A stretch of DNA of 64,000 nucleotides, taken from the sequence record OY726582; one strand, 5' to 3'. This DNA comes from Escherichia phage vB_Eco_NicPhage. The position numbers were made by a program, and so were the translations under genes. The notes beneath the pieces were generated by a model. The model saw only the letters and a program-made list of their open reading frames with translations, searched no databases and was not told the origin of the DNA. Positions 22,412 through 22,867 of the stretch are shown in pieces (the stretch's first letter is position 1; the number at the start of each line of letters is the position of its first letter).

Positions 22412-22867
22412 TTATTTCAGATCTTCGGCCCAATCTAGTTTTAAGGGTTCTTTGTATTCACGGTCGAGAATAACCGGAATAGCTACATCACCACTGAATG
22501 ATAGTTGGCCAACGTTATATGATAACGTTATATGTGGAGTGTAGTCGTCGAAATCATGAGTAGCACCTAAAGCTCGTGCATACTGATGACGACATCTAAG
22601 ATATTCAGAATCAAGAACTAAAACCAGTACAGCGCCGTCGTCAGTTTTCCATACCTCAAAGTGTCCTGATTCGGCAACAGAATAACTACCACTAGATGTA
22701 GTATATGGTATGTTTACACGTGAATAACAAATTGTTGAATGAAGCTTTTCACGTGGTACTGGATTAGGAATTCTTAATTTGCGCTGGAGGTCTTCCAGCG
22801 CATCAAGTGTTAATTCCGAAAATTTAGCTGCGACGTAGAGGCCTTGTGAAAAGTCCTCAAATTTCAT
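22412..22867 (-). CDS. acb1: Acb1 anti-CBASS 2H-phosphoesterase (T4 gene 57B homolog)
   Basis: 151 aa; two H-x-T motifs (HSTI, HITL); strong resemblance to T4 57B as recalled; position next to 57A. Confidence 0.75.

Follow-up and report, generated by a model that had tools for sequence, protein, structure and literature searches.

Acb1 proteins are small phage phosphodiesterases that cut the cyclic nucleotide signals of CBASS, a bacterial immune system; the family was described in 2022, with both biochemical and genetic tests (Hobbs et al., PMC9117128). T4 Acb1, the founding member and the product of gene 57B, cleaves 3'3'-cGAMP, cUA, and cA3 without a metal, whereas cGG is left intact (PMC9117128). 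Nine further homologues all cut both 3'3'-cGAMP and cAAA (PMC9117128). In infected cells, 57B is the activity that degrades cGAMP, and a T4 mutant deleted for acb1 grows normally in the absence of CBASS but is impaired more than 300-fold on CBASS hosts (PMC9117128). The active site of the T4 protein is an HxT/HxT tetrad formed by H44, T46, H113, and T115, and the H44A/H113A double mutant is dead (PMC9117128). The aromatic residues Y12, W74, F107, and W147 stack on the bases of the ligand, E141 contacts adenine N6, and a C-terminal lid shuts over the bound molecule (PMC9117128). In T4, acb1 adjoins ipI, whose product is an inhibitor of GmrSD restriction (cited in PMC9117128), and this adjacency has been used as evidence of an anti-defence cluster (PMC9117128).

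Host defences also respond to these phage proteins. Because Acb1 degrades cA3, T-even phages are vulnerable to Panoptes guard systems of type II, and escape mutants inactivate acb1 (PMC13577387). Certain T-even phages, Bas43 among them, have a disrupted acb1 (PMC13577387). The trigger of type I Panoptes in T4 is Acb2 rather than Acb1 (PMC12657218). RB69 is not mentioned in the paper that described the family (PMC9117128), and Mosigvirus is not mentioned in the Panoptes Nature paper (PMC12657218); neither paper yielded an experiment with a Mosigvirus or RB69 Acb1.

An acb1 gene in an RB69-like coliphage

The window analysed here is a stretch of 64,000 nucleotides from Escherichia phage vB_Eco_NicPhage (sequence record OY726582). 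One of its ORFs (Table 1) is, with high confidence, acb1, the equivalent of T4 gene 57B; the phage is a Mosigvirus, one of the RB69-like T-even coliphages. By analogy with its characterised relatives, the gene would encode a small metal-independent 2H phosphodiesterase. The first-pass annotation had placed a 151-aa Acb1 homologue here; the coordinates hold exactly, and the strand, which that annotation did not give, is minus. Read from the sequence, the ATG start codon occupies 22867-22865 and the TAA stop codon 22414-22412.

Table 1. Features of the acb1 locus, with positions in the window
Feature	Position	Strand	Evidence or remarks
gene 4	25401-25994	-	
gene 2	24577-25398	-	
gene 3	23890-24480	-	
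T4-type late promoter motif TATAAATA inside gene 1	23452..23459	-	pattern search; motif match only
gene 1 (dNMP kinase)	23102-23836	-	
gene 57A (tail fibre chaperone)	22867..23097	-	Pfam GP57, 5.9e-23; PHROG 1002
acb1 (gene 57B) CDS	22412..22867	-	ORF list and sequence; 151 aa plus TAA stop
HST codons, H43-S44-T45, first HxT catalytic motif (T4 H44/T46)	22733..22741	-	sequence
HIT codons, H112-I113-T114, second HxT catalytic motif (T4 H113/T115)	22526..22534	-	sequence
C-terminal lid codons, aa 144-151, including W146 (T4 W147)	22415..22438	-	conservation; PMC9117128
ipI orthologue (internal protein I)	22047..22334	-	Pfam IPI_T4, 3.2e-50; 87% identical to T4 IPI
four small conserved ORFs between ip genes and tRNAs	20280-21666	-	PHROGs 2290, 2023, 1411, 1692
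tRNA-Met and tRNA-Arg (Met-CAT, Arg-TCT)	20044-20200	-	

Proteins 100% identical to the window Acb1 are encoded, for example, by Escherichia phage LF82-41, which is classed as Mosigvirus, and by E. coli O157 typing phage 6. At the DNA level, the 7-kb locus shows 98.3% identity to Escherichia phage vB_EcoM_G53 and 95-98% identity to many further phages, among them Mosigvirus 308Ecol101PP. The identical Mosigvirus proteins and this DNA similarity indicate that the window belongs to the genome of an RB69-like T-even coliphage. Across the phage collection, a homologue of the window Acb1 is present in 1469 phage records, 137 of which carry a protein at least 99% identical to it. This is a known gene: characterisation of its family dates from 2022, Pfam has a curated model for it, crystal structures have been solved, and identical proteins have been deposited from many Mosigvirus isolates, one of them in a phage record that already labels acb1 a "cyclic phosphodiesterase".

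Family membership and the RNA ligase label

The 151-aa protein matches the Acb1 family model of Pfam (PF23474) from end to end. The match scores 197.3 bits (E 1.3e-58; gathering score 27 bits) and aligns residues 8-149 with positions 1-144 of a model of 144. A scan against NCBIfam found no model for the family. T4 57B/Acb1 (NP_049750) is identical at 129 of 151 positions (85%; 92% positives) with no gaps, in agreement with the proposal that the ORF encodes a T4 57B homologue. Among solved structures, the best sequence match is Erwinia phage FBB1 Acb1 (7T26/7T27; E 1.1e-58), at 62% identity over 140 residues. The two H-x-T motifs pointed out in the first-pass annotation are present by direct reading of the sequence, HSTI at residues 43-46 and HITL at residues 112-115. 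Two such triplets in 151 residues are weak evidence by themselves, and the real case is homology.

Many databases give proteins of this type another name. PHROG 755 and many GenBank records read "RNA ligase", which would make the product a generic 2H RNA enzyme: either a LigT-like 2'-5' RNA ligase or a 2',3'-cyclic phosphodiesterase acting on RNA ends, for example in tRNA repair. The distance of only about 2 kb between acb1 and the phage tRNA genes would suit such a role, and the protein does weakly match Pfam 2_5_RNA_ligase2 (PF13563; E 0.013). That match, however, spans only residues 70-131, and its score of 15.9 bits falls short of the cut-off of 27. T4 57B, 85% identical to the window protein, degrades cGAMP in infected cells and upon its loss shows a CBASS-specific defect only (PMC9117128). 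An RNA enzyme is consequently given a very small probability, and the structural comparisons below bear on the same question.

Predicted fold

An AlphaFold2 model of the window Acb1, built from a 42-sequence alignment from which the T4 sequence was left out, has a mean pLDDT of 89.1 and a pTM of 0.82. Confidence drops only over a few residues at either terminus, with the lid tip among them; low confidence at the C-terminal end is as expected, because the lid is flexible. A Foldseek search of the PDB places FBB1 Acb1 (7T26 and 7T27) on top, with 7T26 at a TM score of 0.85 by query and 0.93 by target, an rmsd of 1.0 Å, 63% identity, and an E value of 3.5e-19. The 2H phosphoesterase fold that had been proposed from the motifs is thus matched by the model, which superposes on 7T26 at that rmsd. 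Next in the ranking is the distant phage Acb1 BCSR5 (9Q2Y/9Q2G), and LigT-type 2H enzymes follow far behind (TM about 0.45-0.55, 13-16% identity).

The two groups of relatives illustrate where the window protein stands within the 2H superfamily. The Burkholderia phage BCSR5 phosphodiesterase/Acb1 is a distant family member of 165 aa that has the same fold and aligned HxT motifs, although its identity to the window protein is only about 16-18% (sequence E 0.007-0.05; Foldseek E about 1e-8 to 1e-7, TM about 0.6-0.68). Enzymes of the LigT/2'-5' RNA ligase type (PF13563; E. coli LigT, 5LDI) have the 2H fold and two HxT/S acid-base motifs in common with Acb1, but they are larger (about 170-180 aa) and lack both the Acb1 lid and the context of the adenine-reading Glu. 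LigT structures do appear among the distant fold matches, as an RNA enzyme would predict, yet at TM scores of about 0.45-0.52 and 13-16% identity, compared with 0.85-0.93 and 63% for Acb1. Because the match to 7T26/7T27 lies so far above that to LigT-type enzymes, the modelled fold is the Acb1 version of the 2H fold rather than merely a generic 2H fold.

An identity as "RNA ligase" was therefore rejected on a sub-threshold and partial Pfam match and a poor structural match. The window protein does not belong to the PF13563 LigT family, and the database label is a misnomer carried over from the wider 2H superfamily.

Catalytic and ligand-contact residues

Conservation was assessed in an alignment of 43 family members that are 30-85% identical to the window protein. 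H43, T45, H112, T114, and Y11 are invariant in all 43, E140 is kept in 42, and W146 in 40. An aromatic residue occupies position 73 in 42 of the 43 members (W or F) and position 106 in every one (F or Y). The tetrad H43/T45/H112/T114 aligns with the corresponding T4 and FBB1 residues, and the window Acb1 carries the T4 residue at all positions checked, namely the tetrad together with Y11, W73, F106, E140, and W146. Retention of the adenine-reading E140 and of the stacking residues, which are specific to cyclic-oligonucleotide binding, also argues against an enzyme of RNA ends. The first-pass annotation had suggested an alignment to T4 57B as a check and named loss of a catalytic His as grounds for doubt; that alignment keeps both histidines at 85% identity, and H43 and H112 vary in none of the 43 members.

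Small differences set the characterised proteins apart from the window Acb1. T4 57B is annotated with one extra N-terminal Met and is otherwise of equal length. FBB1 Acb1 (7T26, apo; 7T27, with the 3'3'-cGAMP product) has the same catalytic tetrad and C-terminal lid Trp, but carries F and Y where the window and T4 proteins have W73 and F106, both still aromatic, and has a one-residue insertion after position 78.

The 22 substitutions relative to T4 57B are mostly conservative, and none falls on a named functional residue. The nearest are L42I, which adjoins H43, and E148D, inside the lid. These two changes, and the selection that Panoptes systems exert on Acb1 (PMC13577387), are what could be expected of an Acb1 that is functional but has departed from T4 Acb1 in its substrate range or its interaction with the host, whether towards cGG or 2'-5'-linked signals or towards avoidance of Panoptes. 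Every named ligand-contact residue is nevertheless identical to T4 and the substitutions near the pocket are conservative, while the shared cleavage of 3'3'-cGAMP and cAAA by all nine tested homologues suggests an activity that is stable across the family (PMC9117128). A shift of this kind is accordingly given a very small probability. It is likewise highly unlikely that the Mosigvirus allele is a natural specificity variant, with a substrate range or Panoptes triggering measurably different from that of T4 Acb1.

Gene neighbourhood and expression

The minus-strand gene order 4-2-3-1-57A-acb1-ipI-small ORFs-tRNAs is the same in T4 and in Mosigvirus LF82-41. With 57A and gene 1 upstream and ipI downstream, the ORF sits in the 57B position, as had been proposed. 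T4 Acb1 resembles the window copy in its tetrad, its Y/W/F/E/W contact residues, its slot between 57A and ipI, and the late motif in gene 1; the host phages differ in genus, Mosigvirus for the window and Tequatrovirus for T4.

The TAA stop codon of 57A overlaps the ATG of acb1 as TAATG (GAAGAATAATGAAA), an overlap of 1 nt compared with 4 nt in the T4 annotation. Because of this stop/start overlap, 57A and acb1 are probably co-transcribed and translationally coupled. No clear ribosome-binding site for acb1 is shown.

The overlap with 57A and the gene name 57B could also speak for a role in tail-fibre assembly alongside 57A in place of immune evasion, and the disruption of acb1 in T-even phages such as Bas43 (PMC13577387) shows that an inactive remnant has precedents. 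The ORF, however, is full length and spans the entire Pfam model, its catalytic residues are all intact, and the predicted model is confidently folded; normal growth of T4 Δacb1 without CBASS argues that assembly does not depend on the gene (PMC9117128). The probability left to a remnant or an assembly factor is close to nil. A pseudogene was rejected as an explanation, since the ORF is full length and all catalytic residues are present.

The late motif inside gene 1 (Table 1) is the nearest of its type upstream of 57A-acb1, and the equivalent position is kept in T4 gene 1. Judging from this motif, acb1 is probably expressed in part from a late promoter inside gene 1. The cGAMP-degrading activity of T4 starts about 15 min into infection (PMC9117128), an onset that such a late promoter would fit. 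A scan for sigma-70 promoters and terminators around acb1 returned 9 promoter-like sites, compared with 9.7 expected from shuffled sequence, and gave no convincing dedicated promoter.

Three promoter-like sites downstream of acb1 form a separate observation. The minus-strand sites at 22369-22397, 22014-22042, and 21683-21711 are near-identical, each with TTTACA, a spacer of 17 nt, TACTAT or TATAGT, and a TG extension, and they lie just upstream of ipI, upstream of an 87-aa ip-like gene, and of the next small ORF, respectively. As motif matches, they suggest that each small gene downstream of acb1 may have its own early-type promoter. Over the whole window, the late motif occurs 19 times, compared with 8.3 expected from shuffles, and most copies are on the plus strand at 47-61 kb. 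This clustering would fit a group of late structural genes in that interval.

Other anti-defence and variable genes in the window

The first-pass annotation had read acb1 as anti-defence cargo next to ipI-like genes. The presence of a true ipI orthologue directly beside acb1 agrees with that reading, as does the same adjacency noted in T4 (PMC9117128). The plural stands only in part: the gene at 22047-22334 is a true ipI, whereas the product of 21715-21978 shares with IPI only an N-terminal MKT(Y/F)KEF stretch.

This second gene, on the minus strand, encodes an 87-aa protein whose N-terminus, MKTYKEFIAE, matches IPI and whose remainder is unrelated to it. The protein belongs to PHROG 13302, to which no function is assigned, matches no Pfam or NCBIfam family, and is found in only 35 phage records, compared with 1469 for Acb1. 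In Mosigvirus LF82-41, the same slot holds a different protein of 102 aa, labelled "internal head protein". The MKTYKEFIAE-type stretch resembles the T4 capsid-targeting sequence, and because of this resemblance the 87-aa protein is a candidate for a variable, capsid-targeted internal protein that could be injected into the host. Perhaps it acts as a counter-defence factor.

The four small ORFs that follow correspond to the T4 trna.2-trna.4 region; they are uncharacterised and lie near known anti-defence genes. The tRNA cluster beyond them is reduced relative to T4, with two tRNA genes in the window against eight. The T4 cluster also contains the segB homing endonuclease gene and two small stable RNAs, and segB is absent at the tRNA cluster of the window. 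The two-tRNA layout is also annotated in Mosigvirus LF82-41 and 308Ecol101PP.

Elsewhere in the window, a homologue of Acb2 (Vs.4), an anti-CBASS sponge for cyclic nucleotides, is encoded at 7730-7996 on the minus strand. Its 88-aa product is 65.5% identical to T4 Vs.4 (E 5e-32), with a diverged middle third, and matches Pfam Acb2_Tad1_hairpin (4e-18) and PDB 7UQ2 (E 1e-30). As in T4, the window phage has both the nuclease Acb1 and the sponge Acb2, their genes here about 14 kb apart.

Proposed mechanism and significance

We infer catalysis, substrate range, and immune evasion for the window Acb1 from the T4 and FBB1 proteins. By this analogy, the protein would act during infection by binding cyclic di- and trinucleotides with 3'-5' linkages, the products of host CBASS cyclases (such as 3'3'-cGAMP, cUA, and cA3), with at least one adenosine required in the bound signal. 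Stacking on the bases would fall to Y11, W73, F106, and W146 of the lid, and recognition of adenine N6 to E140. Strain imposed on the ligand would let the adenosine 2'-OH attack the neighbouring phosphodiester, and H43/T45 and H112/T114 would provide metal-independent acid-base catalysis that cuts the 3'-5' bond via a cyclic phosphate intermediate and linearises the signal. The linear product would be unable to switch on the CBASS effector, and abortive infection would be avoided. As with other Acb1 proteins, degradation of cA3 could also blunt type III CRISPR systems that signal through cA3, and it could expose the phage to Panoptes guard systems.

The gene is an ordinary Mosigvirus copy of T4 57B/Acb1, and its importance extends little beyond annotation and host-range prediction. 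In annotation, Acb1 (cyclic oligonucleotide phosphodiesterase) should replace the labels "RNA ligase" and "hypothetical protein" that many deposited Mosigvirus genomes give this gene. The window phage carries the standard T-even anti-CBASS nuclease and, with Acb2 and IPI, the usual T4-type counter-defence set. For phage therapy or for predicting host range, a phage with an intact acb1 can be expected to resist many CBASS systems and may be sensitive to Panoptes guard systems of type II (PMC13577387).
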